Source of the DNA: an uncultured bacterium
GTDB lineage: Bacteria > Omnitrophota > Omnitrophia > Omnitrophales > JACQLI01
Direction: 5' to 3'
Length of the DNA: 64,000 bases
NCBI GenBank assembly: GCA_964372875.1
Contig: CAYJTB010000002.1
Location: forward strand, 21,576 to 85,575
This document shows positions 2,578 to 20,828 of the stretch, piece by piece (positions within the stretch are counted from its first letter, which is position 1; each line of letters opens with the position of its first letter). The notes under the pieces were generated by a model, which did not search any database, was not told the origin of the DNA, and saw only the letters and a program-made list of their open reading frames with translations. The translations under genes were made by a program, and so were the position numbers.

Positions 2578-2702
2578 AGTCTTTTTATCCTTTTTTAAAG
2601 ACATAAAATTTCCCTTCACAAACCCCGTTTTATTACATACAATGAAGCCCGAGTTGTACATCAATAAAAGATTCTGCATGAGTTCGAAAGGAGCTAATTC
2701 AA

Positions 2703-3317: not shown

Positions 3318-3348
3318 GCTTTAAATAGCTTTGCACTGACGCACAACA

Positions 3349-4599: not shown

Positions 4600-4612
4600 C
4601 CCTCAACTTACT

Positions 4613-5347: not shown

Positions 5348-6068
5348 CCCCGCAGGCGGACCCGCGAATTACCTTTTAGGGATTCTTAGAGCGCTCAAAG
5401 CCGATTTTTTGCATCTGGGCCCCTCCGAAATTCTGGCGCCTCATATTCTTTCACGCCGTTTCGACACAATCATTCTAAGCGATTTCTCAGCCCAAAACGT
5501 CCCACAAACGTCCCAAAAAATCATTCGCGAACAACATTTATCCGGCGCCGGATTAATCATGGTGGGAGGCTGGGGATCTTTCTCAGGGCCTTTCGGCGGG
5601 TGGCGGGGAAGCGCGATTGAAAAAATCCTTCCGGTGTCTTGTCTGGCACGAGATGACCGCACCAATTTTCCGGGCGGCGCTTTGATGACTCTGAAGGCAA
5701 AACACAGCATGTTTAATAAAATCGATTTCAAAAATCCGCCTGTCATCTGTGGTCTTAATGAAATCCGCCCGAAAAAAGAGGCCCTCACGCTTTTAAGCGC
5801 AAGAAAAGTTCAAATAAAAAAAGGCGGCTGCAATCCTCAAATTGCTCTGGATCAAAAAGAATACCCCTTGCTTGTGATTGGAAGAAATCAACACCAAAGA
5901 GTCGCCGCTCTCACCACAGACCTTGCCCCGCATTGGTGCGGAGGATTAGTTGATTGGGGAGGGAAGCGTTTGAAGCTTCGCGTAAATTCCAAAATCCAAA
6001 TTGAAGTAGGAGACTTTTACGTGAAGTTTGTTTCCGGTCTCATCCGTTGGCTCGCCAAACAAGAATAG
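5322..6068 (+). CDS. Class-I glutamine-amidotransferase-like (DUF1355/ThuA-like) protein
   Basis: MKILYAGDSPAGGPANYLL...LIMVGGWGSF. Overlaps the tatC stop. Family call is tentative. Confidence 0.35.
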   Translation: MKILYAGDSPAGGPANYLLGILRALKADFLHLGPSEILAPHILSRRFDTIILSDFSAQNVPQTSQKIIREQHLSGAGLIMVGGWGSFSGPFGGWRGSAIEKILPVSCLARDDRTNFPGGALMTLKAKHSMFNKIDFKNPPVICGLNEIRPKKEALTLLSARKVQIKKGGCNPQIALDQKEYPLLVIGRNQHQRVAALTTDLAPHWCGGLVDWGGKRLKLRVNSKIQIEVGDFYVKFVSGLIRWLAKQE

Positions 6069-6104: not shown

Positions 6105-9100
6105 TTAAGCAGCGATGGCCATCTGTTTTGCGGCCTCGAAGACCTTCCAGATCGCTTCCACTAAGGCAAAAGCCGAGCTCTTTATTTTGAAACGGGATCC
6201 GTTGATCTCAAAGAGATCTTGTTTTTGTGAAAGGCTCAGAACATCTTGAGCAAGTTTGGTGGAAGCACCTGACATAATGACAAGATAAGCAGCGCGTTTA
6301 GCTTCTGGAATAGAATAGGTCACAGAACGCAGACTTTTTCCAAAGTCTTCGCCAAATTCAGCGATCTTATCAGACAGGTTTTCCGGAAGGCTCAAGACAA
6401 AATAACGTCCAAGAAACGTTTGAAATTTAACCTCACCTTCAGGAAAATATTGCTTGTGCGCTTCATGGGCTGCCTTCAAGACTTCCTTTCGTAAACCGAT
6501 CCAATCGGGCGCGTAAACAAGATTTGCCCGGCCATCGGGGACAAGCTTTGTAAGTTCATCCATTTGTTTTGTGAGTTCGTCCTGATCTTGCTGATTCTTC
6601 ACCGCCTCCGGGGTTACAAAAATACTCACTCTGGCTTTCTTATTTTCGACGAGGGGAACAATAAGGCCTCGAAGCTCTGAAGTGCTTGGAACATAATCTA
6701 AAGTCGCCACATGCACTCCGGGTTGATTCGCTCCTTTTGCCAACAATGTAAAAATGCGAGCGATTTCACTATTAAATTGAATACTCTCTGTTTCCGGTCT
6801 CTCACTTTGTTTGGAAAATTCAATTAAAGCTGGAAGAATTTCTTCATCGTCAGGACTAAAGACCCACCGCATTTGTTTGGCGATTTCCAAGATAGCCCGA
6901 ACGACCGTCTTTGGATCCATCTTAGGGTTAGAATAGGGACGATGTTTTACAGCCCTTTCCATCAAAGAGAGGGTGAGAACCTCAGTTTTGGGGGAAATTC
7001 TCATTTCCGAGCGGCCGGCTTCAGTGTCCGGCGGAGTCGGAGGCACTTGAGGAGGCTGGCGGAATAAATTCTCAAGGCTCGCCCGGTCCTGCTCTTTCAA
7101 AAGGTGAAGCGCAAAAATTCGCCCGGCAAGGGTTTCAATAAGTTCTTCCATGGCCGGCGTGAGCGGTTGCGATTTCACCCGAAACATCTTTATGTATTCA
7201 GAAGGAAGCGGAACATTATTCGCAATATCTGCAAAAGATTTGTTATCCGTTAATACAGCCACCGGGTTTTCCTTTTCATACTTACCTCCCTGAACATTTT
7301 GGAAGTAAAACTTTCGGGCGTCTTCAGGGGTGAGTTCACCTTTCAAACGGAGAAGCTTTTCAATGAGCTCAGTTCGTGGCTCAAGCGTCGTAAGAAAATC
7401 AATGAGATCTTTATAATTCCTGTCAAACCTTGCCAGCGGTTCGGTAAGACTCCAAACCTCGCTGCGCATTTCGGAGCGGTTCGGATTTTCGCCTTGACCG
7501 GGAAGGCCCTTCTCCAAAAGGTTGCGGATAAACAGAGCCGTGCTAAAAAGAAAATGTTTGGCTTCTTCATTAGGAACATCTTCCTTTTGGCTCGCTGTAT
7601 TTAAGGCGCTTGCGTAGCGCATGAGTTCGCTGCTAAAACGCGCAAGAACGCTTTGAGGATCTTTGTATTCCGGATTCGTTTCGGGATGAGTGAAGGAATA
7701 GGTTAGAGTCGATTCCCCCCCCGCCGTTTTTTCGGATTCGATCAAAGTGACTTCATTCTTATCGGGTTCAACCGTTAAATTCCAGTAAAACCCGTGCCCT
7801 TCTTCCAATTCCACGCTGTTGGACACCACGATTTTTCCGCCTTCCCCTTTATCAGACGGCAGTTGTTGCAATTGGATTTTATATTCAACGCCGTTCGCCG
7901 CCGTGAGTTGGGTTTCGTAAATATTTTTGGTATGAGTAGGCGCAATTAAAGGTATGCGCTCTGAGGTAGAAATGACTTTATGATAATAGGGAGAGGAAAT
8001 CAGTTGAGAGGGGATAGATTGGGCTTCGCCCTTAGAAGAATACAGGAGCGTCTCGGCGGGTTTTTCCGGGTTAGGTCCCAATACAAGGTAAAGCTCCGTT
8101 TCCAATTGAGTCTTGGCACCCTCGGGCACGGTGATCTCAACCTGCCCCTCTTCCGTGACCTTTTGAAGCGTCTCGACTAAATGTAAAATTCGGCCCACCA
8201 AGACATCGCCTTTTTCCGCTTTAAACAAAATGTCCTGAGGCCGAACCTCTTTTTCTGAAAAGGGCGACAGTTTGACTCGGTTGAGAAGCATTTTGACTTC
8301 ATAGCCAAAGCCGCTGGATTGTTCAGAAATGCTTTTGATTAACTCTTCACGATGGGCCAGCTCCCACAATTTGGAGAGGTATTGCTTTAATTCTTCATCA
8401 CTGGCCCGCGCCTCGGAACGGAAGTTGCGGGAGTCTGTGTGAGGATCATACATAGGTTCAAGGGCCCGACGGATGGGGTCAAAGACGAAAAAATGTTCCA
8501 GATGAAGACTGGGTTTATGGATCCCGGCATAGGCGTCCTTAACACGTGACGGTGAAAATACTATTTCCACGGCGCCAGCTATCGCGAGGATATTGCTGTA
8601 ATCTCCCGATCGAAACCAACGAATCAGCTCGTCTTTCGTGGGAGGAAATTCGAGCCTCCGATCTTCCAACGTCTTTTTCCATTCGTCAGGAAGATTTTCT
8701 TTCTTATACTGTGAAGCCATTTTTGAAAGAGTCTCCAAATCTCTTTCGTCAATCAGCCCATCCAAAACAGGATCGGCGATAAAACGTGGCGGTTTTCTCG
8801 GTTCGCGAATCTCGTAGAGCCTCCATTTCATACCGGTCGGTGAAAACTCGAGCACAAACCGCTTTAATTGTTCTTCCAGGCCCGCTTGATTTTCCGGAGA
8901 ATCTTCAGCCTGAAAAAGAAGATGATCGGGAGTCCACCGGTTTACCTTGTAGCCGCCGCCTCTAAAATATTCGGTTTCTGTTGCCTTGAGGTAGTCAAAC
9001 GCCGCCATTTTTTCTACGGGAAGCAGCTCCTTGATCCGATTTTGGAGGGCTTTAATAGCATCGCCGACGCTCATTCCTTTGCGCGCTTCGGGATCATCTG

Positions 9101-12100
9101 ATTCAAACAAGCCCGCGGGCGTAAGAAGCTTAGGAGTAGAATTCGCGACTTTGGCGGCGAAGTTGCCTTGGGGGTCAACTAATTTTTTCCTAAGAAGCGG
9201 TTGAGAAAAATCACCGGCATTCCTCAACCCTTCGATCGGGAGTTTGAGATCAAGATAGATGGGATAACGGGTCGAATCCACGATAAGAAACCGGTTCTGC
9301 CAGCCTAAGTTTGCGCGTTCTTTTAAGGAAACGATGCTGAAATTGTTAGAAATTGCCTGCTCCATGGTCGTTGTGGTGTGTCCGCCGATGGCGAAATCCA
9401 CTCCGTTTTTTTCTACATAATCAGCAATCGCACGTTCGGAGTAATCGCGGCTCCAAAGCGTTTCGAGAAGAGGGTTTGTTTGGCGCTGTTCTTTCTGCGA
9501 TCTTGGAATTCGCGTAAGGTCTCTTACTTCGGGCGTGAAGAAATTAATAACGTCTTTCAAGCTTTGAATGTTGTGAACGGCTCCCGCATGAGCTAACAGA
9601 ATTTTAGTCCGGTCATCTTCAGAATGAATTTTTAAAACAACGGGAGAGGCCTGTATGTAGTTCTTAAAACCTTCGAGGGCTTCTTCGGAAAATGGTTTTC
9701 CTTCCCCGAACACCTCTTTTTCAAAAAATGAATTTTGGGTTGTAAGACGCTTTTGTTGCCAGATAGCAAGCCCTCCCATTTCGTGAGGGAGATGAGCATA
9801 GTCATGATTGCCGGGAAGATAATGCACCTGAACAGGGAAACGGCGCTTCAACGCCAAAATTTGCAGCAAGGTTGTGAAGGAATCCGCATAAGCCTTGGGA
9901 TCTTCGAAGAGTTCGCTTCGATGAGTATGAATCGCATCGCCCGTAATCACAAGATGAGCGTTTTTATCTTTGCGGAGCGCCCGTTCGATATCGACTTCTT
10001 TTAAAATTGCCGCCAGATTTTCATAAGCGCCGTGAAGATCGCCGATCACAATCAGCCGGTCCGCGTTTTTAATTTCTACCAAAGCGCCCGGTTTTCCGTG
10101 ATCATCGAGCCACCGGACGCTGCGCTCCCGATTATTGATCTCTTCTCCCTGAGAGTGAAGCGGGTACGCATCAAGTGCCGTCACCGCCCGCGCGAAAAAT
10201 TTTTCCGCACCCTCTTTCATAAAGAATTCGTACATTTGTTCTTTATCCAAAACCGCGTCCTGCTTCGCTCGCACCTCGGCCCTCGCCCGCTCAGGCGAGG
10301 ACGGAGGAGTACCCGAATCCAACCGATTTGGGCGCACCTCGGCTCTTGCACCGGATTCTCTGAATTTTTCGGTTTCTAAAGTGAGGGATTGACCGTTCCC
10401 AGTTTGTGGATAATGACGGGCGGATTCAAGGACATTGATTTTCGAAGGACGGCTTACGATTCCGAAGTGCGTCTCGAGTTCTCCAAGGAGGCGGAAGATA
10501 ACTTCGTCTTCTTGAATGCTTGGGCTATAAGATCTCTGCTTCATGAAGTTCAGAGCTCGTTTGATCGTTCGAGTGTCGTAATTCTGAACGACGTATTGAA
10601 CGACCTCATTATCTTTACTGCGCACCTCGGCCCTCGCCCGCTCAGGCGAGGACGGAGGAGTACCCGAATCCAACCGATTCGGGTGCACCTCGGACCTTCG
10701 ACTCGGCTCCGTCCCGAGCGTAGTCGAGGGGCTCAGGTCAAAAACACTCGGCCCTGAGCGAAGCCCTTCGGACTGAGTCGAACGGGCCTCGGAGCGGGAT
10801 TGTAAGCTGGCGGGAATGGGATCGAGATCCGTTTGCTTAAGTTCTTGAATTTCTAAAGATTCATGATTCGGTGTAATTTCTCGCTCCCAAAGGATCAGAA
10901 CGCCCGGGGCTTTTAATCTTTCCCAAATCATTCTCGCTCTTTCCTTGATGGTCTCCGAAGTCCAGTGTTCTCCCATCCAGGTGTTTCTCCAAAAGAAGAT
11001 ATGAGAAGGCGCAATAAATTCTGGATGAGCGGGAAGATCAAACAGATTTCCGTAAATTCCTTTGAATTCAACATCGATTCGGGAACGGTCCGTTTTGGGT
11101 AATTCAAGAAGCCGGTCTTTGATTACTTGTTCAAGCTCCAGAAGCGCTTCTACACTTTGGTTTACCACCTGTAAAACGAGATGGATTTTTTGTCCCTTGC
11201 CTTTTAGGGTTTTTAGTTCAGCGATCACCGTTTCGACGGTCTCCATCAATTCATCCCCTTGCTTACCCGGTCCCAACGTCGTCACGACCATCCCACGCGT
11301 ACCCGCTTCCACTAAAGAATGAACGGCCGAACGCAAAGCTCTTTGCTCGTTCTCTTCTAGAGGAAAATTCGAATCCGAGATGGCTTGTCCTTGATCCAAT
11401 CCTGTTTGAACCAAACGACGAATCTCTTGTTCGTCTAAGTCGGTGTAAGGCAGGAAAAAATCTACGATTTTACCCGGCTTCCATAATTCAGGCCGGAAAG
11501 TCCCGCGCCGCATTTCCAATTGCTGCGCCACAATTTTTTCCAAACGTTCTCTTTTCGTGTCACTCCGCACCTCGGCCCTCGCCCGCTCAGGCGAGGACGG
11601 AGGAGTACCCGAATCCAACCGATTCGGGTGCACCTCGGACCTTCGACGCGGCTCCGTCCCGAGCGTAGTCGAGGGGCTCAGGTCAAAAACACTCGGCCCT
11701 AAGCGAAGCCCTTTGGGCTGAGTCGAACGGGCCTCGGAGCGGGGGGCCGTTATTTTATCTTTAATAATATTATGGTTGACTTTTAATAAATCATTTGTTA
11801 CCCTTTCCCCGTTCTGAAATGCTAAGGTATGATGAAAGGAGAACAAGCCTGAGGTGAAAATATTCTGGACTCCAAAACGGTTGGAGGCGATGTCAAAAAC
11901 TTCTTTAACGCTGTTCCAGGCATTTTTGGTGGCAGCAGTAGTTGGTGGCGTGTTAGGCAAAATTCCGAATGCCTGGCTCAAGTTGTTTTTTCTGTCGGCG
12001 ACGTTTAGCTTTTTGGTATTAGGAATTATAGTGGCCGATTGGCCTTTAATGAAAAAAGAGGAGGCCTGAAATGTTTGCTCTGATCTTTGCTTTGGTTCTG

Positions 12101-15100
12101 ATATTTGTAATTGCTGCTTGGATTGGAATCGAGCAGTACCGCCTGAAACACCGGCGTCATTAATCGTTTCCGCATTTCGCATCTCGGCCCTCGCCCGCTC
12201 AGGCGAGGACGGAGGAGTACCCGAATCCAACCGATTCGGGCGCACCTCGGAACGGGGGCCTTGGTTATCTTCAAACCCGCCGGCGATCTTCAAATCCTGA
12301 AGGCGATCATCAAGCCGCTCCACGGCGTAGTCAAGCCCCTGGAGAAGGTGGGCTTCCTTTTCCGGATCATTTTGCATGGAATTTTTTAAATCGGCGATCA
12401 GGGATTTGGCTTCACCGGCTTCACGGAAAATGGTTTCGACAATCTCCGGACTCACTCTCTGACCCGTATTATTGTGATGCTTCAACGCCTCCATCAGATT
12501 TCCGCGCAGCTTAATCAAGCTTTGATCCAGCAAACGGCGCAATTCCTCAGGCGTCTCGCCTCCTCCCTCAAGGGGCTCCGGAGTCGGTTGCGCCCGCACC
12601 TCAGCGCGGGGCAGCGCTAGAAACGTAGTTTTATTTAAATCAAATTTTTCTTGACTATAAAATATATCCTTGTTAAACTCTCCTTTAATGAAAGATCGAA
12701 CACGACGGCTTGAGTCTGGTAAAATGCTACTGGACGTCTCAAAGTATTTCTCGACAGTTACGGGCATCGGAAGCCTGGCGGGCGGTTCCGTGAATTGGCG
12801 GTTAGCCGCTGTAGGTCTATTCATGGCGTTCGTATCTTGGTTTGTCGGATTTGTGACAATTCCTAAAGATGAGGAAACCAAATGACTAATTTTGAAATCA
12901 CGGCCATTGGCATCGGGATATTCGCCCTGGCGGTGGGCCTGACGGTCTACCTCACCGAGCGCTGGGACTCGATGCGCCATAACTCCCGTAAGCCCAAACA
13001 CGCCTAATTTAACATCCCCGCTGTTTTTCTCACTCCGCACCTCGGCTCTCGCCCGCTCAGGCGAGGACGGAGGAGTCTCCGGCCGGTCAGCCGGAGGCAC
13101 CTCGGCTCTCGAGTCGGCGCGGGTGCGTTCCTGCCAACTCAAAATGATTTTTTGGATTTCTGGATGAAGTCGAAACGCCGCTGATCGAAACATTTCGAGC
13201 GGAGGCGCCTCCGACAATTGTAATTTTGAGTCGATTCCCTCTTTCCCCTGAGACTCTATCGATCTTTGGAACTCCGATAAAAAATAAAATGCGTAAATCC
13301 GCTGAGTAAGATTGTCTAACCCCGAGGCCCAGGCCCGAAAGTTGCCAAGGCCGAGCTGTATTTCCTTTTCAAGAATCCGGATAGGATCGCCCTGCGCCTT
13401 TAAAATTTCCTCATACCTTCCTTCGAACAATGCCCTTAGGCCCTGTGCGTCGCGCCCTTTCGCGGCACGTAAACTCGATTGAAAACGCTTGGGAAGAAAC
13501 AATCCTTTTTCCTTCCCCCACTTGATGGCTTCTTCCTGTCGCGATGTTTCATAAAATTCATTTGCCATAAGGATGGCAACAAAGCGTAGAATTTGTTCGT
13601 CATATTTTGATAAGAACCGGTTTACCGAGTCCCGGGGCCAAAAAGGTTGCGGGTTTCCCTCAAAAAGGGAAGCGGCCTCATTTCGGATGATGGGAATTCC
13701 TTCCTTCAATAGTTCCTTGTGTTCCGGATCACTCCACTTGAAAGCGGCACCCCCCCAAGCTTCACGGATGATGTCGGAGGCAAAGCCTAGAAAAAAATAA
13801 TCCAGAGAATCAAGATTTTGAATGGCATTCCATCTCCAATAAAGATGCGCATCATTGATGCGTATCGTCATGGTTCCTGATGGGTCATCTTTTTTCTTTG
13901 CGTAAATCATTCCTTGTCTTGCCAGTTCAGCAGGCAGCGGCTCCGCTTTCTTGACCGCTTCCTTATAGTTCTTGAGAACCTCGGGATGCGGGTATCCTTG
14001 TTCAATCAACCAATCAATCGTTGCCGAAATGGCTTGTTTGATACTTTCCAGATTGGGATCAACTTTGAAACGCAATTGTTTTGGCAATTTTGCCGGTGTG
14101 CTTTGGGTGGATGAAATACCTTTGAGGTCTCCGACGATTTTTACAATTTTTTCGAGTTGATCATTCGTCAGTCCTAGAATTCCCTTTTGATTTTTTATTT
14201 TTTCTTCAAGGATTCGCCGCAGCTCCTGCACGGTCAATGTTTCACTTCTGTAAAGAAGCCTCAAGCGATCTTCGTTTAAACGGTCATGAAATTTTTGTGG
14301 AATACCGCTCTTGGCTTTGATGTTATCCCTCAGCATCTCGAGCTTCCTTTTTTCGTCCGTTCCGTGAGAATCTGCCCGCATCTCGGCCCTCGCCCGCTCA
14401 GGCGAGGGCGGAGGAGTACCCGAATCCAACCGATTCGGGTGCACCTCGGACCTTCGACTCGGCTCCGTCCCGAGCGTAGTCGAGGGGCTCAGGTCAAAAA
14501 CACTCGGCCCTGAGCGAAGCCCTTCGGACTGAGTCGAACGGGCCTCGGAGCGTGAAGTTTGATTTTTATTATAATATTTATTGATATAAAATGAAACTCC
14601 TGCTAGACTCCCCAGCGCATAAGGAGCTCTATTCATGAAAGAAATCTTTTCACCCGATCGGCGGGAAGTTGCAGCACGAACGTTATTCGATACCTGGAAG
14701 CTATCCGTCCCCGCCGCTGTAGCAGGAGGGTTCTTCCTCCAATTCAATATTTTTGTTAAAATCGCATTTGTGGTAGGGCTTTTAGCCGGATTTGCCTTGG
14801 CATTTTTTATGTTCCCTCCGGAATCAAGGGGAAAAGGAGGTTGAGATGTTAGTTGCTGTGAGTATTTTATTGGTGTTGGTTCCCGCCGTCCTTCTTGCAG
14901 GAATGTATTTAGAACAGTACCTGAGGAAGCGTCGTCACCTACATTAGAAAGGAGCGGCTGAGATGGACGTTGCTTTGATTTCGATATTTGGGATCCTTGT
15001 AGTGATAGGGACGTGGTTTGGGATTGAGAAGTACCAGGAACGCCGGAAGAGACACCTTCATTAAACCTTCCGGTATTCTTCTCACTCCGCGCCTCGGAGC

Positions 15101-18100
15101 GGTTGGCACCTCGTGCTAGTTGGTCGGCTTTTTGAATTTTCTTTTTCAAGAGATTAAGGTTAGGAATCGCCTTTTCACTCGCGATCTTGTCTAAAGTTTC
15201 AAGAGCAAGTTTAGAAAAGCCATCTTCGGCAAGTTTTTCAAATGCGTCTTGACTTTGTGCCTGTTCTATTAAACCCTTCTTAAATTGTTCAACGATGTAA
15301 ATTGAAAAATCTTCAACCCCTTTTCTACGAAAGTTCGGAATCAACAAAGATTTCTTCGTCTCATCAAGAACGAAAAAATTGGAACTCCATTTCCTAATAA
15401 ATCGGATATGTGACGAATTGATAAATCTTCCGGTTTGTGGGTCTTTTCGGAAAAGATCTATCAAATATTCTTTCAATTTTGCGCCATTCTTCTCTTCTAT
15501 TATCGCCTCAAACAAAGCGTGATTTTTCCCAGCATCCTTCTCCGGATCCCCTAAATAACTAGCATCTTCAAACTCTTTTTGTAACGATGGAAAAATTTTC
15601 TTGAGCAGTAGCAGCTCTTCCTCAAACCTCTTCTTCAATCCTTTGGATTGGATAATGGGCAATGGAAGCTTCCGAAATGCTTCTATTTTTTCATCCCCCA
15701 TGCCGTAGGGATTTATATCTATCGAATTCCGAATAGCGTGAAGAGCCTGAACATTTTCGGGAATATCTAAATTCAATTTCTGAATCGCTTCCACAAAAGC
15801 AACGTCTTTAGTTCTTTCGCTCGCCCGCACCTCGGCCCTCGCCCGCTCAGGCGAGGACGGAGGAGTACCCGAATCCAACCGATTCGGGTGCACCTCGGAC
15901 CCTCGACGATCAGAAGTTAGAAGTCGGGAGTCAGATATCAGATTTGCCTCCGAGCGGGAAAACACTATTTCCTTATTCGTCAAAAATATATTGACTTTTA
16001 AGGAATATGGATATACACTCATTGCCGCAAAAGGAGAGTAAGTTTTGTTTACACCGCTTCGAAGATTTGAATATGGTAGGATGCTGTTGGCATTGATCCC
16101 CGTGCTTGTGGGCTCGGCAGTGGTAAGCCGTGTGTTTACAGAAGCACCGCCGTTCTTTAGAATAGGGGTGGTATTGCTGATATTAGTCATAAGCGTGCTT
16201 GGCTTTATTATTTTACCCGCATCAATGGAAACTAAAGAAGGGAGGCGTTGAAATGATAGATACCGCGACGGCAGCTCTTCTGGGTGTTTTTTTAATGTTG
16301 ATTGTGATGATGTCTTGGTTTGGGATCGAGAAATATCTGGAGCGGCGGAAGAAGACTCATTGATAACACCCGGCAGCTCAAAATCAGCGAGAATTTCTTT
16401 TTGAGTCGTCGGAGCGGAGCGGGCGTCTAGGACAGGCGTCTCAACCGTGATGGTTCCAAACGGGATCACGATCGGCGCGCCGTAGATATTACGAAGTGGT
16501 TTGTTTTCCACATTGTCCCACACGATAGCTTTCTCGCCCGTGCGGCTTAAAATAAGAACAAATCTTCGGTCAGAGGCGTAACTACTTTGATTGATAGCAC
16601 GAATAATTCGTGACGCCGCCATCCTCTCATCTTTTGCTGTCTCAATAATTGCCTGAAGAACACTTTTAATTTCTTGAATAATGATTTTGGGCCGGACGTT
16701 TTGATCACGCGTTGTCATCCGCATCCGGATGGCATTGGAGATTTCTTTGATCGCAGGCTCGAGGTAGTTTACATCAAACGAGGTTTTCTTTTCGCCGAGA
16801 AGAGACGAGATGTAATCTTGAGACGAAGTTTTTTCTGTGATGCGCGGAGAGAGGATCGTGTAAGAAATTCCTTTTTTTCGGAAGGCGCGCGAGAGTCCGT
16901 CGGCGTGGAAACCGCCGGTGATGAGGACGGTGACGCCGTTCTCCCTCATCTTGCTCTTCTCCTCCCGAGGGGGAGAAGAGACAGTTGAGGGGGGATTTAA
17001 TATTTTTTCCACCATCACATCTTCACGTTTTTTGGCAAGTTGGTAGAAACGCATTGCCTGTTGGTAAAGATATTCAATCGCCCGGATGTTCGCAGGAATG
17101 ATTTGAGACGGACCCAAGTTTGTTTTGTCATGAAGAGATTGCATATCAATAAGGTAACGGACAAGCGGGCGGTCGATCGTTTCAGCTTGCTGGATTTTGA
17201 CGTAATCTTTGGGCGTAAGTTCCAAGTCAAAGAGCCGCTCGAAAAGTCCGCCGCGCTGGGCAAGCCCGACCAGTTTTAATTCTTCCGGTTGGGCAGCAAC
17301 GGCTTGGATTAGATTTTGAAAGAGCCGCTCGATTTCACCAAAAAGCCGTTCCGCATCGAGTTCGCTTTGTAAAACAGCCGCCTCCAAATAATGTGTGAAG
17401 TAGGGATAGTGATCAAAAGAAAATCCCTTATCGACTGTGGAGACTACAAGGTATTCCGCCAAATAACGCGGCAGATCATTTTTATTAAAACCAGGATCGT
17501 AGACCATTCCCGTTTGGTAAGGGGAGAACGAGAGGTTTTCAAAGGCGTGGACAAGAACGGGATGAACCCCGATTTCTTTTAAGTCAGCGATTAATTTTTG
17601 ACGGTCCGTTTGAATTCGTTCAGGATCAAGGCCCGACTCCGCCTCCTGAAGCCTCAAGAGCCTGATCATCTGCGGCCAGTCTTTTTGGCTCTCAAAGTTT
17701 CTAAGATCCACGCCCAGAATTTGTTTGGTTCTTCGCTCGAGTTCAAAGGCATAAGAGAGAAGTTCCATCTGGCCGGCCTCAAAAGATTCATTCGTTCGGA
17801 GCAGTGTTCTCGTATGAGGCGTTAGCAGATGAGTTCCAAGCCGGTCGAGTTCGCCGTCCAGTCCTTTGGTGAAAGTATTCGTTTCATTTTGCCGGCTCAT
17901 TACAATTTGAAAACTCTCTAGGTTATCCCGGTAAAGATCAGGATCTTCAATTCCGTAGGCGGGGATTTTTTCCTGTGATTCAATGAGGAAAAGTTCCGCT
18001 CCCGTCAGTTCGCCCTTTTCAACAAGCTTTTGGGCAACCTCCACGTTCAACTGGTTTTGATCAAAAAATTTGAAGTAGTCGGGGTTGAGTTTTTCGCCGG

Positions 18101-18431
18101 CGCCTTCAATGAATAAAGCGCGAACGCCGTATTTCTCGTCCAGAAATTTTAGAAGGGCAAAAATCTTTTTCTGTGTCTCGGCGTGTGCGTGAACCGATTG
18201 GATATGAATGAGAGGAATATTTTCTGTTTTTGTGTCGGGAAGAAATGCTTCTTTAATCGAAGCAAGCTCCTGGGGAATTCCGAGGGGCATCAAAGACAAG
18301 GGAAGATTTTCTATGCCGCCTTCGGCCTTCGCGGGTGGAACGAGGATGGACGATGCAATGACACACATCGCGACCAAGAGAGATATAAACTTTTTATAAG
18401 TCTTCATTAATGTCATAAATCTAATTTTCAA
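6105..18431 (-). CDS. Giant 4108-aa secreted multidomain protein. N-terminal TraB/GumN(Tiki)-like domain, at least five unknown middle domains, C-terminal calcineurin-like metallophosphatase. Seven in-frame copies of a near-identical repeat linker
   Basis: Stop-free for 12,327 nt. Signal peptide MKTYKKFISLLVAMCVIASSILVPPAKA. HIQSVHAH...ITGGFHADGL (TraB/GumN-like). IVIGDLHG...ITGDAIHTHRS...LPGNHDYAH (metallophosphatase motifs I-III). Repeats encode RSEARSTQSEGLRSGPSVFDLSPSTTLGTEPSRRSEVHPNRLDSGTPPSSPERARAEVR. Confidence 0.7.
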   Translation of the reverse strand: MKIRFMTLMKTYKKFISLLVAMCVIASSILVPPAKAEGGIENLPLSLMPLGIPQELASIKEAFLPDTKTENIPLIHIQSVHAHAETQKKIFALLKFLDEKYGVRALFIEGAGEKLNPDYFKFFDQNQLNVEVAQKLVEKGELTGAELFLIESQEKIPAYGIEDPDLYRDNLESFQIVMSRQNETNTFTKGLDGELDRLGTHLLTPHTRTLLRTNESFEAGQMELLSYAFELERRTKQILGVDLRNFESQKDWPQMIRLLRLQEAESGLDPERIQTDRQKLIADLKEIGVHPVLVHAFENLSFSPYQTGMVYDPGFNKNDLPRYLAEYLVVSTVDKGFSFDHYPYFTHYLEAAVLQSELDAERLFGEIERLFQNLIQAVAAQPEELKLVGLAQRGGLFERLFDLELTPKDYVKIQQAETIDRPLVRYLIDMQSLHDKTNLGPSQIIPANIRAIEYLYQQAMRFYQLAKKREDVMVEKILNPPSTVSSPPREEKSKMRENGVTVLITGGFHADGLSRAFRKKGISYTILSPRITEKTSSQDYISSLLGEKKTSFDVNYLEPAIKEISNAIRMRMTTRDQNVRPKIIIQEIKSVLQAIIETAKDERMAASRIIRAINQSSYASDRRFVLILSRTGEKAIVWDNVENKPLRNIYGAPIVIPFGTITVETPVLDARSAPTTQKEILADFELPGVINESSSAAPDISRSQTKTSSQSTLKKHPEELPSRYLSFQRLPSLVSIDAGKIIKPSTLMTNISNTTPILKNGGASVNTRLTTAEPTSTGINANSILPYSNLRSGVNKTYSPFAAMSVYPYSLKVNIFLTNKEIVFSRSEANLISDSRLLTSDRRGSEVHPNRLDSGTPPSSPERARAEVRASERTKDVAFVEAIQKLNLDIPENVQALHAIRNSIDINPYGMGDEKIEAFRKLPLPIIQSKGLKKRFEEELLLLKKIFPSLQKEFEDASYLGDPEKDAGKNHALFEAIIEEKNGAKLKEYLIDLFRKDPQTGRFINSSHIRFIRKWSSNFFVLDETKKSLLIPNFRRKGVEDFSIYIVEQFKKGLIEQAQSQDAFEKLAEDGFSKLALETLDKIASEKAIPNLNLLKKKIQKADQLARGANRSEARSEKNTGRFNEGVSSGVPGTSQSQTTSLSLQGSQISKSKQRPSQPLLSNVGDDASSGTVLNTFLQEGRREPTPIKYSQQLTSQPPFPLDSGGNIKNAKANPAKSPTTNAILTKILNWRKNPPATAAGTDSFQVSNNVRAATSRRSGEKISFMNRAPYALGSLAGVSFYINKYYNKNQTSRSEARSTQSEGLRSGPSVFDLSPSTTLGTEPSRRSEVHPNRLDSGTPPPSPERARAEMRADSHGTDEKRKLEMLRDNIKAKSGIPQKFHDRLNEDRLRLLYRSETLTVQELRRILEEKIKNQKGILGLTNDQLEKIVKIVGDLKGISSTQSTPAKLPKQLRFKVDPNLESIKQAISATIDWLIEQGYPHPEVLKNYKEAVKKAEPLPAELARQGMIYAKKKDDPSGTMTIRINDAHLYWRWNAIQNLDSLDYFFLGFASDIIREAWGGAAFKWSDPEHKELLKEGIPIIRNEAASLFEGNPQPFWPRDSVNRFLSKYDEQILRFVAILMANEFYETSRQEEAIKWGKEKGLFLPKRFQSSLRAAKGRDAQGLRALFEGRYEEILKAQGDPIRILEKEIQLGLGNFRAWASGLDNLTQRIYAFYFLSEFQRSIESQGKEGIDSKLQLSEAPPLEMFRSAAFRLHPEIQKIILSWQERTRADSRAEVPPADRPETPPSSPERARAEVRSEKNSGDVKLGVFGLTGVMAHRVPALGEVDRQAHRQGEYPDANGRDFKISHLVSSSLGIVTNPTNQDTNAMNRPTAANRQFTEPPARLPMPVTVEKYFETSSSILPDSSRRVRSFIKGEFNKDIFYSQEKFDLNKTTFLALPRAEVRAQPTPEPLEGGGETPEELRRLLDQSLIKLRGNLMEALKHHNNTGQRVSPEIVETIFREAGEAKSLIADLKNSMQNDPEKEAHLLQGLDYAVERLDDRLQDLKIAGGFEDNQGPRSEVRPNRLDSGTPPSSPERARAEMRNAETINDAGVSGGTARFQSKQQLQISEPKQRSEQTFQASSFFIKGQSATIIPNTKKLNVADRKNNLSQAFGILPNTPPTTAATKNAWNSVKEVFDIASNRFGVQNIFTSGLFSFHHTLAFQNGERVTNDLLKVNHNIIKDKITAPRSEARSTQPKGLRLGPSVFDLSPSTTLGTEPRRRSEVHPNRLDSGTPPSSPERARAEVRSDTKRERLEKIVAQQLEMRRGTFRPELWKPGKIVDFFLPYTDLDEQEIRRLVQTGLDQGQAISDSNFPLEENEQRALRSAVHSLVEAGTRGMVVTTLGPGKQGDELMETVETVIAELKTLKGKGQKIHLVLQVVNQSVEALLELEQVIKDRLLELPKTDRSRIDVEFKGIYGNLFDLPAHPEFIAPSHIFFWRNTWMGEHWTSETIKERARMIWERLKAPGVLILWEREITPNHESLEIQELKQTDLDPIPASLQSRSEARSTQSEGLRSGPSVFDLSPSTTLGTEPSRRSEVHPNRLDSGTPPSSPERARAEVRSKDNEVVQYVVQNYDTRTIKRALNFMKQRSYSPSIQEDEVIFRLLGELETHFGIVSRPSKINVLESARHYPQTGNGQSLTLETEKFRESGARAEVRPNRLDSGTPPSSPERARAEVRAKQDAVLDKEQMYEFFMKEGAEKFFARAVTALDAYPLHSQGEEINNRERSVRWLDDHGKPGALVEIKNADRLIVIGDLHGAYENLAAILKEVDIERALRKDKNAHLVITGDAIHTHRSELFEDPKAYADSFTTLLQILALKRRFPVQVHYLPGNHDYAHLPHEMGGLAIWQQKRLTTQNSFFEKEVFGEGKPFSEEALEGFKNYIQASPVVLKIHSEDDRTKILLAHAGAVHNIQSLKDVINFFTPEVRDLTRIPRSQKEQRQTNPLLETLWSRDYSERAIADYVEKNGVDFAIGGHTTTTMEQAISNNFSIVSLKERANLGWQNRFLIVDSTRYPIYLDLKLPIEGLRNAGDFSQPLLRKKLVDPQGNFAAKVANSTPKLLTPAGLFESDDPEARKGMSVGDAIKALQNRIKELLPVEKMAAFDYLKATETEYFRGGGYKVNRWTPDHLLFQAEDSPENQAGLEEQLKRFVLEFSPTGMKWRLYEIREPRKPPRFIADPVLDGLIDERDLETLSKMASQYKKENLPDEWKKTLEDRRLEFPPTKDELIRWFRSGDYSNILAIAGAVEIVFSPSRVKDAYAGIHKPSLHLEHFFVFDPIRRALEPMYDPHTDSRNFRSEARASDEELKQYLSKLWELAHREELIKSISEQSSGFGYEVKMLLNRVKLSPFSEKEVRPQDILFKAEKGDVLVGRILHLVETLQKVTEEGQVEITVPEGAKTQLETELYLVLGPNPEKPAETLLYSSKGEAQSIPSQLISSPYYHKVISTSERIPLIAPTHTKNIYETQLTAANGVEYKIQLQQLPSDKGEGGKIVVSNSVELEEGHGFYWNLTVEPDKNEVTLIESEKTAGGESTLTYSFTHPETNPEYKDPQSVLARFSSELMRYASALNTASQKEDVPNEEAKHFLFSTALFIRNLLEKGLPGQGENPNRSEMRSEVWSLTEPLARFDRNYKDLIDFLTTLEPRTELIEKLLRLKGELTPEDARKFYFQNVQGGKYEKENPVAVLTDNKSFADIANNVPLPSEYIKMFRVKSQPLTPAMEELIETLAGRIFALHLLKEQDRASLENLFRQPPQVPPTPPDTEAGRSEMRISPKTEVLTLSLMERAVKHRPYSNPKMDPKTVVRAILEIAKQMRWVFSPDDEEILPALIEFSKQSERPETESIQFNSEIARIFTLLAKGANQPGVHVATLDYVPSTSELRGLIVPLVENKKARVSIFVTPEAVKNQQDQDELTKQMDELTKLVPDGRANLVYAPDWIGLRKEVLKAAHEAHKQYFPEGEVKFQTFLGRYFVLSLPENLSDKIAEFGEDFGKSLRSVTYSIPEAKRAAYLVIMSGASTKLAQDVLSLSQKQDLFEINGSRFKIKSSAFALVEAIWKVFEAAKQMAIAA
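9450..10110 (-). other. Calcineurin-like metallophosphoesterase domain of the giant protein, approximate bounds
   Basis: GDLHG at about 10031-10045 (- strand). GDxxxxH and GNHD motifs in order, GNHDYAH at about 9795-9815. Confidence 0.6.
10268..10350. repeat. Repeat copy R1 (short form), in-frame inside the giant CDS
   Basis: + strand core cacctcggccctcgcccgctcaggcgaggacggaggagtacccgaatccaaccgatt. Contains hairpins cctcgcc-cgctca-ggcgagg and cccgaatc-caacc-gattcggg. Confidence 0.85.
10621..10798. repeat. Repeat copy R2 (long form, about 178 bp)
   Basis: Core plus tail ...cgggtgcacctcggaccttcgactcggctccgtcccgagcgtagtcgaggggctcaggtcaaaaacactcggccctgagcgaagcccttcggactgagtcgaacgggcctcggagcg. 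Near-identical to R3 and R6. Confidence 0.85.
11565..11743. repeat. Repeat copy R3 (long form), immediately upstream (+ strand sense) of cassette 1
   Basis: About 98% identical to R2/R6 by eye. Directly abuts the AT-rich promoter region of cassette 1. Confidence 0.85.
11854..12069 (+). CDS. Cassette 1 gene A: small (71 aa) two-helix membrane protein, antisense-nested in the giant CDS
   Basis: GTG start with SD aaggag 12 nt upstream. Charged N-terminus, two hydrophobic helices (LVAAVVGGVLG / FFLSATFSFLVLGIIVA), charged C-terminus. The TGA stop sits immediately upstream of the ATG of gene B. Confidence 0.6.
   Translation: MKIFWTPKRLEAMSKTSLTLFQAFLVAAVVGGVLGKIPNAWLKLFFLSATFSFLVLGIIVADWPLMKKEEA
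12071..12163 (+). CDS. Cassette 1 gene B: 30-aa single-helix peptide with a W-I-G-I-E-Q-Y + basic tail
   Basis: MFALIFALVLIFVIAAWIGIEQYRLKHRRH. Translationally coupled (tgaaATG). Paralogous to the peptides at 14963 and 16253. Confidence 0.55.
   Translation: MFALIFALVLIFVIAAWIGIEQYRLKHRRH
12176..12256. repeat. Repeat copy R4 (short form), immediately downstream of cassette 1
   Basis: cgcatctcggccctcgcccgctcaggcgaggacggaggagtacccgaatccaaccgattcgggcgcacctcgg. Confidence 0.85.
12670..12885 (+). CDS. Cassette 2 gene A: small two-helix membrane protein; the true start may be the internal ATG near 12687
   Basis: Paralog of 11854/14635/16045 (…TGIGSLAGGSVNWRLAAVGLFMAFVSWFVGFV…KDEETK). The upstream TTGACT-N17-TAAACT promoter-like motif overlaps the annotated start, so a shorter or leaderless form is likely. 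Confidence 0.5.
   Translation: MLNSPLMKDRTRRLESGKMLLDVSKYFSTVTGIGSLAGGSVNWRLAAVGLFMAFVSWFVGFVTIPKDEETK
12882..13007 (+). CDS. Cassette 2 gene B: 41-aa single-helix peptide with a basic tail (diverged paralog)
   Basis: MTNFEITAIGIGIFALAVGLTVYLTERWDSMRHNSRKPKHA. ATGA start/stop overlap with gene A. Confidence 0.45.
   Translation: MTNFEITAIGIGIFALAVGLTVYLTERWDSMRHNSRKPKHA
13034..13120. repeat. Repeat copy R5 (diverged variant), downstream of cassette 2
   Basis: ccgcacctcggctctcgcccgctcaggcgaggacggaggagtctccggccggtcagccggaggcacctcgg. First hairpin intact, second replaced. Confidence 0.7.
14376..14552. repeat. Repeat copy R6 (long form), immediately upstream of cassette 3
   Basis: Near-identical to R2 and R3 over about 175 bp. 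Confidence 0.85.
14635..14844 (+). CDS. Cassette 3 gene A: small (69 aa) two-helix membrane protein
   Basis: SD aaggag 8 nt upstream of ATG. TTGATA-N17-TAGACT promoter-like motif at 14581-14609. …AAVAGGFFLQFNIFVKIAFVVGLLAGFALAFFMF…. Confidence 0.6.
   Translation: MKEIFSPDRREVAARTLFDTWKLSVPAAVAGGFFLQFNIFVKIAFVVGLLAGFALAFFMFPPESRGKGG
14846..14947 (+). CDS. Cassette 3 gene B1: 33-aa single-helix peptide
   Basis: MLVAVSILLVLVPAVLLAGMYLEQYLRKRRHLH. Coupled (tgagATG). Confidence 0.5.
   Translation: MLVAVSILLVLVPAVLLAGMYLEQYLRKRRHLH
14963..15064 (+). CDS. Cassette 3 gene B2: 33-aa single-helix peptide, tandem duplicate
   Basis: MDVALISIFGILVVIGTWFGIEKYQERRKRHLH. Own SD aaaggag 8 nt upstream. Confidence 0.5.
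   Translation: MDVALISIFGILVVIGTWFGIEKYQERRKRHLH
15825..15910. repeat. Repeat copy R7 (short form), upstream of cassette 4
   Basis: ccgcacctcggccctcgcccgctcaggcgaggacggaggagtacccgaatccaaccgattcgggtgcacctcggaccctcgacg. Confidence 0.85.
15991..16019 (+). promoter_or_regulatory. Sigma70-like promoter of cassette 4 (TTGACT-N17-TACACT)
   Basis: Seen directly in the sequence. Equivalent motifs precede cassettes 1 (TTGACT 11776), 2 (TTGACT 12650) and 3 (TTGATA 14581). Confidence 0.45.
16045..16251 (+). CDS. Cassette 4 gene A: small (68 aa) two-helix membrane protein
   Basis: TTG start with SD aaaggagag. TTGACT-N17-TACACT at 15991-16019. …LLALIPVLVGSAVVSRVF…IGVVLLILVISVLGFIIL…. Confidence 0.6.
   Translation: MFTPLRRFEYGRMLLALIPVLVGSAVVSRVFTEAPPFFRIGVVLLILVISVLGFIILPASMETKEGRR
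16253..16363 (+). CDS. Cassette 4 gene B: 36-aa single-helix peptide with a WFGIEKY + basic tail
   Basis: MIDTATAALLGVFLMLIVMMSWFGIEKYLERRKKTH. SD gaagggagg. Coupled (tgaaATG). Confidence 0.55.
   Translation: MIDTATAALLGVFLMLIVMMSWFGIEKYLERRKKTH
16880..18250 (-). other. TraB/GumN/PrgY (Tiki-like) domain of the giant protein, approximate bounds
   Basis: N-proximal LIHIQSVHAH and distal VLITGGFHADGL resemble the paired GxxH/HxxH motifs of the TraB/Tiki family. Called from memory. Confidence 0.4.
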
Positions 18432-20000: not shown

Positions 20001-20024
20001 CCGTCATGACGAATTTGAGGAGCA

Positions 20025-20804: not shown

Positions 20805-20828
20805 AATGAAGGAGAATGATTACATCTA

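Follow-up and report, generated by a model that had tools for sequence, protein, structure and literature searches.

Hairpin cassettes at the junction motifs of a giant Omnitrophota gene: in-frame inserts in a protein with candidate processing sites

How does a bacterial gene of more than 12 kb come to hold seven near-identical, hairpin-rich DNA repeats without a break in its reading frame, and what marks the places where they sit? The question is raised by one locus in a 64 kb stretch of Omnitrophota DNA, which was analysed as a whole and is called the window below. It was approached through the protein that the gene encodes, the short motif that separates the modules of this protein, and the repeats, referred to here as cassettes, that interrupt the motif.

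The giant gene and its family

Positions 6105..18431 form a single open frame of 4,108 codons on the minus strand; the first-pass annotation had held the 4108-codon stop-free frame to be real, which was confirmed. An identical protein of 4,103 aa is present in NCBI on a 96.7 kb contig, with its start placed at the ATG of codon 6. Since many of its modules have homologues in other proteins, the frame is coding. Its main features are as follows.

6105..18431, minus strand: giant ORF for a multi-module protein of an Omnitrophota-type family (open frame, NCBI match, module homologues)
18321..18416, minus strand: predicted N-terminal signal peptide or anchor, MTLMKTYKKFISLLVAMCVIASSILVPPAKA (Kyte-Doolittle scan and sequence)
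16782..18416, minus strand: conserved N-terminal domain, aa 6-550, with a Tiki/TraB/ChaN/EreA-like fold and a large helical insert (fold comparison, alignment)
9375..10058, minus strand: calcineurin-like metallophosphoesterase domain within module M9, aa 2792-3019 (Pfam)
6108..6998, minus strand: C-terminal module M12, aa 3812-4108 (homologue comparison)

The segment MTLMKTYKKFISLLVAMCVIASSILVPPAKA is the sole hydrophobic one identified by the Kyte-Doolittle scan, and Metallophos is the only Pfam domain of the protein. Homologues of M12 are also C-terminal in P0095, P0003, P0118 and P0004. Several modules rich in Ser, Thr, Asn, Gln, Pro and Gly were considered as possible junk or inserts, which was rejected, since homologues of M2 and M6 are found in further giant proteins. 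The GC content of the gene is 0.47. Judged from its sequence, the product of the window gene is a giant protein, either secreted or anchored by its N-terminus, and belongs to a very large, mostly Omnitrophota family.

Members of this family start with a signal peptide, followed by a domain of about 545 residues that possesses the Tiki/TraB/ChaN/EreA fold and a His-Glu-His set; 10,257 clusters have this domain conserved at their N-terminus. Its invariant residues are H76, E104, E157, Y162, R464, G501, G502 and H504, and the set H76, E104 and H504 is invariant in all 29 N-terminal domain sequences compared. E141 is conserved together with E157, and no Glu lies two residues before H76 (Q73 instead). 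An AF2 model of the domain has a pLDDT of 84.8 and the alpha/beta topology of the Tiki fold. The spacing of 28 residues between H76 and E104 matches that of the catalytic His and Glu in Bcr135 (His85/Glu113) and in RRSP (His3902/Glu3930, within a 2His/2Glu set), the latter being a MARTX effector and Tiki-fold endopeptidase (PMC6254334). The window domain has no match in a Pfam scan; PF04187 was matched weakly by 7 of the 29 members (best E = 0.0011). A sequence-profile search of the PDB returned no match, and fold comparison alone succeeded. The domain heads more than 10,000 protein clusters without a curated family model and is a candidate processing enzyme.

Homologues have in common only the N-terminal 12-17% of their length; beyond it their Pfam domains differ and modules are shuffled among proteins. 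These domains include PGM, PGI, adenylate kinase, glycosyltransferase and NUDIX. The named sources are mostly Omnitrophota/Omnitrophica MAGs, with two labelled Verrucomicrobiae and Elusimicrobiota. Independently assembled sequences in ENA, JGI, Logan and NCBI show the same architecture, with an N-terminal domain, motif-separated modules and cassettes. The genes that flank the window locus are syntenic with those of another family locus, L005, whose protein P0005 is thereby a positional orthologue. Apart from their cassettes, giant genes evolve by wholesale module turnover, even at this syntenic locus.

The junction motif R-[S/A]-E-x-R

The modules of the window protein are separated by a five-residue motif, R-[S/A]-E-x-R, which occurs at 17 strict and 20 relaxed sites. 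Five plain sites, free of any cassette, are listed here.

15087..15101, minus strand: RSEAR, aa 1111
12594..12608, minus strand: RAEVR, aa 1942
8406..8420, minus strand: RSEAR, aa 3338
7464..7478, minus strand: RSEMR, aa 3652
6999..7013, minus strand: RSEMR, aa 3807

These are the short sites that the first-pass annotation had noticed at domain junctions, and they exist as it described (RAEVR at 1942, RSEAR at 1111 and 3338, RSEMR at 3652 and 3807). Its interpretation of them as degenerate relics of repeated waves of insertion is contradicted by their nature as a family-wide peptide motif with synonymous codon variation, and by the presence of the motif in lineages without any cassette. The plain motifs are the native junction signal and the insertion target of the cassettes.

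Across 58 homologues the motif occurs 323 times, against 17.1 expected from residue shuffles, and a further 132 independent representatives at 50% identity contain 661 sites; at least one site is found in 90 of the 93 proteins longer than 1,200 aa among these representatives. The first site usually falls at aa 525-790, directly past the N-terminal domain, and the median spacing is 266 aa. No site lies within the Pfam domains of P0031 or P0033, and the homologous modules of P0002, P0109, P0087 and P0079 terminate at motifs.

The codons point to the level at which the motif is maintained. Arg is encoded by AGG, AGA or CGN, and the x position uses 12 different codons in L004, a relative that also carries cassettes. 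In one L004 cassette present in three copies, RAEIR differs only synonymously (ATT CGT, ATA CGA and ATC AGG). By this pattern of codons R-[S/A]-E-x-R is under peptide-level selection. Ser is hardly ever encoded by AGY, three of five genes favour GAG, and each gene is homogeneous in its choice of synonymous codons; such biases leave room for some constraint on DNA or RNA, or for shared descent of the sites. Motif DNA is restricted to the giant gene of the window, which holds 18 of its 20 near-matches. Other readings of the motif were also considered. An internal Shine-Dalgarno sequence with a start codon (GAG GTG/ATG/TTG) does not agree with the many lineages in which A, Q, S or T stands at x, and was rejected. 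The synonymous variation of Arg, x and Arg likewise led to the dismissal of a pure DNA site or excision footprint as the main explanation. A mini-hairpin within the motif of L005 (CGCGC...GUGCG) probably arises simply from the CGN codons with which the motif starts and ends, and is not general.

The motif is probably a proteolytic processing site of the polyprotein type; it could alternatively serve for docking, as a hinge or as an export signal. Its roughly 1,000 occurrences across some 190 family members provide concrete candidate cleavage sites and a rational way to split giant proteins into modules for structure prediction and expression.

Cassettes in the window and in relatives

Cassettes occur at seven places in the gene, with left ends at 10269, 10620, 11565, 12177, 13035, 14376 and 15825. 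Two units can be distinguished. Unit S is 63 nt long and forms two perfect stem-loops; unit L is 99 nt long, forms three stem-loops and is found only fused to S, in a composite (L+S) of 162 nt. The copies are numbered from the start of the gene.

15825..15956, minus strand: R1, decayed L plus S (RSEAN...GSEVH-PNRLDSGTPPSSPERA-RAEVR)
14376..14552, minus strand: R2, native RSE, L (99 nt), S (63 nt) and native MR; an S-to-P change extends hairpin b to 9 bp
13035..13109, minus strand: R3, variant short cassette, its left motif decayed to RAEVP
12177..12254, minus strand: R4, S only (RSE-VR-PNRLDSGTPPSSPERA-RAE-MR)
11565..11741, minus strand: R5, L+S composite with four amino-acid-changing substitutions in L relative to R6
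10620..10796, minus strand: R6, L+S composite with five stem-loops, the reference copy
10269..10346, minus strand: R7, S only; one synonymous change makes hairpin a weaker

An 84-nt core is 89-100% identical across six copies and the 182-nt long form 96-100% identical across three. Start-to-start spacings (351, 945, 612, 858, 1341 and 1449) are all multiples of 3, so that the seven copies share a single frame. Seven near-identical in-frame repeats had been reported by the first-pass annotation and are borne out, with one qualification: the long peptide that it ascribed to each copy is encoded by three copies and by the decayed R1, whereas R4 and R7 encode the short form (PNRLDSGTPPSSPERA between two motifs) and R3 a variant short one. 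The encoded spacer is 16-49 residues long.

The perfect stem-loops described earlier were also recovered. CCTCGCC/GGCGAGG is present in all seven copies, one of which has a mismatch just outside the stem, and CCCGAATC/GATTCGGG in six of the seven, one with a mismatch; the seventh, R3 at 13.0 kb, has another perfect hairpin, CTCCGGC/GCCGGAG, at that position. Neither cassette hairpin was found elsewhere in the 64 kb window, where zero would be expected by chance. RNA folding, which had been proposed as a check, gave -97 kcal/mol for the long form (R6), with z = -4.1 against shuffles. The gene contains 14 perfect hairpins of 7 bp or more, and 12 of them are found no farther than 75 nt from a junction motif, where 3.4 would be expected. 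An Rfam scan of the gene yielded nothing apart from a chance-level match to RAGATH-25.

S lies within a native motif, after the E codon and before the x codon. Its constant part runs from GTG CRC to AGG GCC GAG, with outside codons that vary by copy, and always follows ...[T/G]CC GAG of the native motif, so the insertion point is fixed. Because S opens with x-R codons and closes with R-[S/A]-E codons, the full motif is restored on both of its sides. A classical target-site duplication was rejected because the two flanking motif copies differ; the right or the left copy evolves under peptide constraint. S is stop-free in five of six frames, yet all seven copies occupy one frame, one strand and one type of site. 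At places where the window gene has a cassette, homologous modules of other proteins are delimited by a single plain motif. That the element is a palindromic insert acting at the nucleic-acid level and tolerated in frame, rather than an ordinary protein repeat, was the earlier reading. It is upheld by the GC content of the cassettes (0.65-0.70, against 0.47 for the gene) and further by the six substitutions noted between the spacer codons of the copies, all of which change the amino acid, by the single frame, strand and site, and by the presence or absence and the compensatory stem changes found in relatives.

Relatives of the window gene carry analogous cassettes. At sites of this type, L004 (N-terminal domain 31% identical) and L013 contain unrelated cassettes that have two hairpins and a length of 54-66 nt, with spacer peptides that differ. 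L012 and L004, which share 85-94% nucleotide identity, show clean presence or absence of a cassette at orthologous junctions, a comparison that concerns the lineage of this relative. Compensatory changes are found in 4 of 18 stem pairs of the relatives' cassettes, and 97.8% of cells are paired; the covariation proposed earlier as a check was accordingly seen in these analogous cassettes. In types B and C of L004 and in the first hairpin of L013, one stem arm consists of the codons of the motif itself. In the metagenome of L004, the cassette hairpin is confined to two contigs, both with giant genes. The syntenic L005 lacks junction hairpin cassettes and has RAEVR in plain form at 15 junctions; L006 and L007 are likewise without perfect junction hairpins. 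After correction for GC, the window, L004 and L005 all show more structure at junctions than expected. Repeated spacers are found in only 5 of 190 proteins, and the spacer peptide of the window is unique to the window protein among these 190 family members.

The hairpin core had only three chance matches, in unrelated taxa, in a collection of genome contigs. A first scan of metagenome contigs and two scans of viral contigs gave no match. The same hairpin arms upstream of cheR on a 1.2 kb contig (L008) are probably a chance palindrome.

Origin of the cassettes and known systems

We consider it on balance probable that the locus combines two things, a giant protein whose modules are parted by candidate processing sites and cassettes that spread by copy-and-paste at the nucleic-acid level and are specialised on the motif. 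The protein would consist of a signal peptide, the Tiki/TraB/ChaN/EreA-fold domain and a variable string of modules parted by R-[S/A]-E-x-R. If cut at the motif, it would qualify as a bacterial polyprotein, and the cutting enzyme may be the Tiki-like hydrolase at its own N-terminus, for which a protease role is presumed from the fold. S would be copied into a native motif between the E and x codons, and the motif thereby rebuilt on both sides. Cassettes may be tolerated because the spacer of 16-49 residues is a harmless linker, or because it is excised at both flanking motifs. Candidates for their mobility are an enzyme that recognises single-stranded DNA hairpins, template switching, and gene conversion via the microhomology of the motif. 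The cassettes illustrate how a small palindromic element might settle in coding sequence free of cost if it targets a linker or processing motif and restores it, and they serve as markers of very recent change in giant genes.

A stronger version may be put forward tentatively. Thousands of Omnitrophota giant proteins may be polyproteins that are cut at the motif after export by the Tiki-like hydrolase of their own N-terminus, and the two-hairpin mobile elements of 54-66 nt, possibly a class not previously described, may parasitise the codons of the cleavage site. Since the site is restored on either side of each element, the peptide of the element would be removed from the mature products. We regard this as possible and rather doubtful; if true, selfish DNA would here follow, at the level of protein, a strategy equivalent to that of introns or inteins.

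An unlikely reading, though one that retains some weight, is that the cassettes are structured RNA (or single-stranded DNA) selected by the host at junctions and spread among them by gene conversion. They might pause ribosomes for co-translational folding or export, stabilise or process the 12-kb mRNA, or act as recombination hot spots for module shuffling. Compensatory changes that preserve stems, the use of motif codons as a stem arm in L004 types B and C and in the first hairpin of L013, the invariable sense orientation at junctions only, and the excess of GC-corrected structure in the window, L004 and L005 are all what host selection would produce. Most family members, however, including L005, L006 and L007, have no perfect junction hairpins, and the rarity of repeated spacers (5 of 190 proteins) implies that cassettes are dispensable. 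Related strains differ in their presence or absence, and near-identical copies of foreign GC content (0.70 against 0.47) resemble recent spread.

An ordinary linker repeat, in which the peptide of 16-49 residues is functional and evolves in concert and the hairpins are incidental, would explain why every copy is in frame between modules and why the peptide resembles disordered linkers in its high content of Pro, Ser and Gly. It is improbable, as this peptide is confined to one protein among 190, as all six spacer-codon substitutions noted alter the amino acid, as the spacers of relatives are unrelated in peptide yet keep the two-hairpin layout and compensatory stems, and as the first hairpin of R3 was exchanged for a different hairpin and not for a similar peptide.

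Rickettsia palindromic elements (RPEs), with which the first-pass annotation had compared the repeats, are short palindromic repeats that lie in frame in protein-coding genes, are tolerated as an extra peptide and are near-identical within a genome. They are about 100-150 bp long, occur scattered across intergenic DNA and numerous unrelated genes, and are not known to have a peptide-coding target. The window cassettes resemble them in being palindromic, in frame and near-identical, and this part of the comparison stands. Dispersal of the RPE kind is not supported: all copies of the window lie in one gene, and in the metagenome of L004, the one relative examined for this, the cassette hairpin lies in giant genes alone. 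They also differ in being 63 nt long (162 nt for the composite) and always inside one five-codon motif that is regenerated on both sides. The cassettes are thus RPE-like in spirit but target-restricted. A generic, genome-wide element of the RPE type, inserted in waves that left the short motif sites as eroded relics, would suit the palindromic, in-frame, near-identical copies and the insertion-like presence or absence among relatives. It is very improbable in view of the family-wide conservation of the short sites with synonymous variation, including in cassette-free lineages, the lack of copies outside the giant gene in the 64 kb window, the confinement of motif DNA to that gene (18 of 20 near-matches) and of the L004 hairpin to two giant-gene contigs.

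That the ORF or its module order is a chimera joined across near-identical repeats is hardly credible: three long copies that are 96-100% identical over 182 nt could confuse the short-read assemblers used for a MAG, and re-ordering at cassettes would remain in frame, but every copy has unique flanks and private substitutions, the frame is open over 12.3 kb, the architecture recurs in independent ENA, JGI, Logan and NCBI assemblies, and the flanking genes are syntenic with the P0005 locus.

Other small elements offer further parallels to the cassettes. REP/BIME sequences with their RAYT transposases and the PATEs derived from IS200/IS605 are defined by stem-loops and lack terminal inverted repeats; they sit in fixed orientation beside a short specific target, with no classical target duplication. 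The cassettes are similar in the two different perfect hairpins of each S, a layout repeated in L004 and L013, and in their constant insertion point after ...CCGAG and single orientation. REPs are extragenic and often occur as inverted pairs, whereas all cassette copies are intragenic. Nor was a transposase or recombinase, Y1/HUH included, found among the 20 window ORFs scanned. Mobilisation by an enzyme of the REP/RAYT or IS200/IS605 type is speculative.

For the protein, MARTX toxins and viral polyproteins provide the model of a very long ORF with a conserved terminal region, interchangeable modules, processing sites at junctions and a protease within the chain; retroviral Gag adds small spacer peptides between two cleavage sites. 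The window family resembles these in its single ORF, its several modules that vary among relatives and its short conserved junction motif. Unlike MARTX, it has neither RTX repeats nor a cysteine protease domain, its candidate protease would be the N-terminal Tiki-like domain acting at presumed cleavage sites, and its modules resemble metabolic enzymes or enzymes of unknown type. Nearer in taxonomy are the Omnitrophota 'Archaeovorins', proteins of 30-147 thousand residues for which C39 or S8 peptidases have been proposed and post-translational cleavage is suspected, with cleavage points stated to be unknown (West-Roberts et al. 2023 preprint; 2026 complete-genome preprint). Neither preprint contains the Tiki-like N-terminal domain, the R[SA]ExR motif or junction hairpin cassettes. 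The window family belongs to the same phylum as the Archaeovorins and, like them, combines many unrelated enzyme domains in one very long chain that has a signal at its N-terminus. Tiling with multiple enzymes is a property of the homologues, while the window protein itself has Metallophos only; unlike Archaeovorins it comprises 4,108 residues with one hydrophobic segment in place of many transmembrane segments and has no C39/S8 peptidase or SecA-like domains.

Translational bypassing offers a last comparison: in T4 gene 60, and with the 'byps' of Magnusiomyces mitochondria, ORFs contain short inserts that include hairpins and have matching codons on either side. Those inserts hold stops or break the frame, and the ribosome must skip them. 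The cassettes all keep the frame and contain no stop, which makes bypassing unnecessary.

The giant gene and its N-terminal domain

The giant gene (6105..18431, minus strand) is a stop-free frame of 4,108 codons, as the first-pass annotation had described without stating the strand. The NCBI protein, of 4,103 amino acids and encoded on a 96.7 kb contig, is identical to the ORF product and starts at the ATG at codon 6. It has a single hydrophobic segment, an N-terminal signal or anchor, and one Pfam domain:

aa 2792-3019: metallophosphoesterase, the sole Pfam domain of the giant protein

The gene is the only minus-strand gene within a plus-strand block (1-6068 and 18604-22976). One flank carries a sulfate-assimilation set (APS kinase, PHP, PAPS reductase, ATP sulfurylase and PALP) and the other carries GATase1-like, TatC, ROK and DUF3131/glycoamylase genes. 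The locus of the homologous giant protein P0005 (L005) is syntenic, with the same set of flanking genes, which makes the two giant genes orthologous by position, with most of their modules exchanged. Despite this synteny, nothing is common to the two proteins beyond the N-terminal domain and two or three modules. At both loci TatC adjoins the giant gene.

Searching 5.8 billion proteins yielded 57 matches besides the query, 2,400-7,100 amino acids long, and those with a named source come mostly from Omnitrophota MAGs. They share with the query only the N-terminal ~545 residues, and the enzyme domains differ from one protein to the next. A profile of this N-terminal domain matched 10,257 clusters (at 50% identity), at the N-terminus every time. 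Alignment of 29 members showed H76, E104, E157, Y162, R464, G501, G502 and H504 to be invariant; seven of the 29 match PF04187 weakly, and the AF2 model has a pLDDT of 84.8. H76 and E104 are 28 residues apart, the spacing of the catalytic His-Glu pair of Bcr135 and RRSP (PMC6254334). This Tiki-like domain is predicted to be a live hydrolase. Two giant genes of the family, encoding P0015 and P0008 (3,744 and 5,668 aa), lie in tandem on one contig with a small PilZ-like gene between them, in agreement with the PilZ association of giant proteins noted by West-Roberts et al.

A conserved motif marks module junctions

A conserved peptide motif, R-[S/A]-E-x-R, marks the module junctions in this family of giant proteins. 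The pattern R[SA]E[AVMIL][RH] occurs at 20 sites in the query and at 7-23 in many homologues, and in most homologues the commonest 4-mer of the entire protein is part of R[SA]ExR. Residue x depends on the lineage, with RAEVR, RSEAR, RSELR, RSEQR or RSEMR preferred. The first-pass annotation took such short sites for degenerate relics of waves of repeat insertion; they are instead conserved across the family, 58 homologues containing 323 R[SA]ExR sites against 17.1 expected from residue shuffles. In 132 independent representatives 661 sites were counted, and 90 of the 93 proteins longer than 1,200 amino acids have at least one. As a rule the first site comes directly after the N-terminal domain, at aa 525-790, and the median spacing is 266 aa. 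In P0031 and P0033 every R[SA]ExR lies outside the Pfam domains, and the modules common to the window protein and P0002, P0109, P0087 and P0079 terminate at motifs.

Arg of the motif is coded by AGG, AGA or CGN, x by 12 different codons in L004 (the P0014 gene), and RAEIR shows only synonymous differences among three copies of one L004 cassette, which points to selection on the motif peptide. Ser is TCN at 45 of 46 sites. In the window, L004, L005, L006, L007 and L013, TCN was read at every motif Ser but one, even though AGY makes up 26-46% of Ser codons in their genes. GAG is strongly favoured over GAA at the motif in three of five genes. Synonymous codons of the motif are unusually uniform within a gene, for example CGC GCC GAG GTG CGG in L005 and CGC TCC GAA TTG CGG in L006. 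The TCN bias can arise from S/A toggling (TCN to GCN), and peptide selection does not fully explain these codon biases. Eighteen of the 20 near-matches to the motif DNA CCGAGGTGCG lie in the giant gene.

The motif would be a processing site, analogous to those of viral polyproteins and MARTX toxins, and our hypothesis is that the N-terminal Tiki-like domain may be the protease that cuts it. Two preprints on Omnitrophota multi-enzyme giant proteins suspect cleavage and state that the cleavage points are unknown; neither mentions the junction motif or the Tiki-like domain, and RSEVR, RAEVR, RSELR and RSEAR were not found in this sense in the literature searched.

Distant clades with the same N-terminal domain (P0049, P0056, P0024, P0046 and P0047) lack R[SA]ExR. 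Other short repeats take its place, spaced much as modules are: GARL[SAT] (20 and 13 copies) and [AS]SLG(G) (up to 10). They may be junction signals peculiar to each clade, varying in step with the N-terminal domain.

Four modules of the window protein are rich in Ser/Thr/Asn/Gln/Pro/Gly (39-54%) and look non-globular; three of them adjoin cassettes:

aa 701-827 (about 15951-16331, minus strand): Ser/Thr/Asn/Gln/Pro/Gly-rich module
aa 1116-1293 (about 14553-15086, minus strand): Ser/Thr/Asn/Gln/Pro/Gly-rich module
aa 1800-1941 (about 12609-13034, minus strand): Ser/Thr/Asn/Gln/Pro/Gly-rich module
aa 2086-2230 (about 11742-12176, minus strand): Ser/Thr/Asn/Gln/Pro/Gly-rich module

Modules M2 and M6 have counterparts in P0079, P0109 and P0087 (36-45% identical) and thus represent a conserved module type. 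The last module (6108-6998, aa 3812-4108) recurs at the C-terminus of P0095 (43% identical), P0003, P0118 and P0004, perhaps as a C-terminal cap conserved in this clade; its only family hint is a weak match to an Acg/Rv3131-type FMN-binding oxidoreductase model (E = 0.012).

Hairpin cassettes inside the junction motif

The seven repeats of the giant gene (R1-R7) are discrete hairpin cassettes situated inside the junction motif, which is regenerated around them. Repeat and stem-loop searches bore out the earlier description of seven near-identical, in-frame, hairpin-rich copies: an 84-nt core is present in six copies (89-100% identical) and a 182-nt long form in three (96-100% identical), the seventh copy being more divergent, and every start-to-start spacing in the assembled module order is a multiple of three. 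A long peptide had been assigned to each copy; three copies have it and one has it in decayed form, the others being without it. The stem-loop CCTCGCC-N6-GGCGAGG is found in all seven copies and CCCGAATC-N5-GATTCGGG in six, R3 having a different 7-bp hairpin in place of the latter, which comes first in the cassette. Neither of the two stem-loops occurs again in the 64 kb window, where none is expected by chance. For the long form the folding energy is -97 kcal/mol (z = -4.1 against shuffles). The gene contains 14 perfect hairpins of 7 bp or longer, and for 12 of them a junction motif is no more than 75 nt away (3.4 expected).

The short cassette S has a constant part of 63 nt (GTG CGC CCG AAT CGG TTG GAT TCG GGT ACT CCT CCG TCC TCG CCT GAG CGG GCG AGG GCC GAG). 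Copy-specific codons flank it, three in front (CGT TCC GAG, AGA GCC GAG and others) and two behind (GTG CGG, ATG CGA and others), so that S separates the E codon of a native motif from its x codon; S supplies 'xR ... R A E' and restores the full motif on both sides. In the long form S is preceded by a 99-nt cassette, L (GCC CGT ... AGG TCC GAG). All four L+S copies share a change of CGC to CAC, giving RSEVH, which indicates that the composite arose once and then spread as a unit. GC content is 0.70 in S, 0.65 in L and 0.47 in the gene. The six spacer-codon differences noted between copies all change the amino acid (including S-to-P, E-to-K, S-to-L and S-to-R in R5 and S-to-P in R2), and one lengthens a stem. 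S is free of stops in five of six frames while its copies all share one frame, strand and site type, which argues for targeting over mere survival of in-frame copies.

An antisense ORF of 122 aa (10389-10757, plus strand) that overlaps R6 and R7 is most likely no gene but a side effect of the GC-rich, palindromic nature of the cassettes.

Gain and loss of cassettes in relatives

Cassettes come and go between related strains, their stems conserved and their peptide not. P0014, whose N-terminal domain is 31% identical to that of the window protein, carries cassettes of three types between pairs of motifs; all three have two perfect 9-bp hairpins, and peptides unrelated to those of the window. 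In types B and C the motif's own codons form the 3' arm of the second hairpin. A further contig from the sample of P0014 (L012) contains the orthologue of this giant gene, at 85-94% nucleotide identity, and orthologous junctions of the two genes show clean presence or absence of a cassette.

Junctions filled in one gene and empty in its orthologue
P0014 aa 2105: filled, EVRAARLGLNDPQSLNPIGSRA; empty in L012, a single RSEIR, GAG ATT CGT matching the right-hand copy
P0014 aa 3175: filled, RPEINISGTPLRTRRSEL; empty in L012, a single RSEVR
L012 aa 1426: filled, a 42-aa composite; empty in P0014, a single RSEIR

In five B/C cassettes 97.8% of stem cells are paired (at most 49% in slid controls), and 4 of 18 stem pairs are changed on both sides. 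In a third lineage (L013, an NCBI MAG), 60-nt cassettes of the form RSE[QR...RSE]LR have two hairpins, with a compensatory A-T to G-C change and 5 of 15 spacer residues different. Close motif pairs occur in 40 of 190 proteins, with a peak at spacers of 15-17 residues; repeated spacers occur in only five of the 190, the window protein being the most extreme. Junction hairpins were absent from L005, L006 and L007, which have plain motifs.

Lying between two complete motifs, the cassettes would be tolerated, their peptide being a harmless or excised spacer. They would spread by a DNA-level mechanism; an enzyme of the IS200/IS605 or REP kind that recognises hairpins is one candidate, and template switching at palindromes and conversion through the microhomology of the motif are others. 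A host function of the hairpins, in pausing, mRNA stability or recombination, is also possible.

L012 lacks whole modules that P0014 has, about 1,170 residues (P0014 aa ~698-1880); as this difference is bounded by junction motifs, module gain and loss also occurs at the motif. At L004 28218-28271 (gene nt 18218-18271) there is a perfect palindrome with a 24-bp stem (CAAGGACTGAGGAGTCCTCAGCTC gatcg GAGCTGAGGACTCCTCAGTCCTTG), centred on RSELR, in frame and stop-free, as if part of a type-A cassette had been duplicated in inverted orientation. In a metagenome scan the type-A hairpin matched only the P0014 contig, L012 and one unrelated 1.2 kb contig. On the last (L008 1-45), a palindrome with a 19-bp stem, whose arms are those of the type-A hairpin, lies between genes directly upstream of cheR; it is the sole copy seen outside a giant gene and is probably a chance or convergent hairpin.
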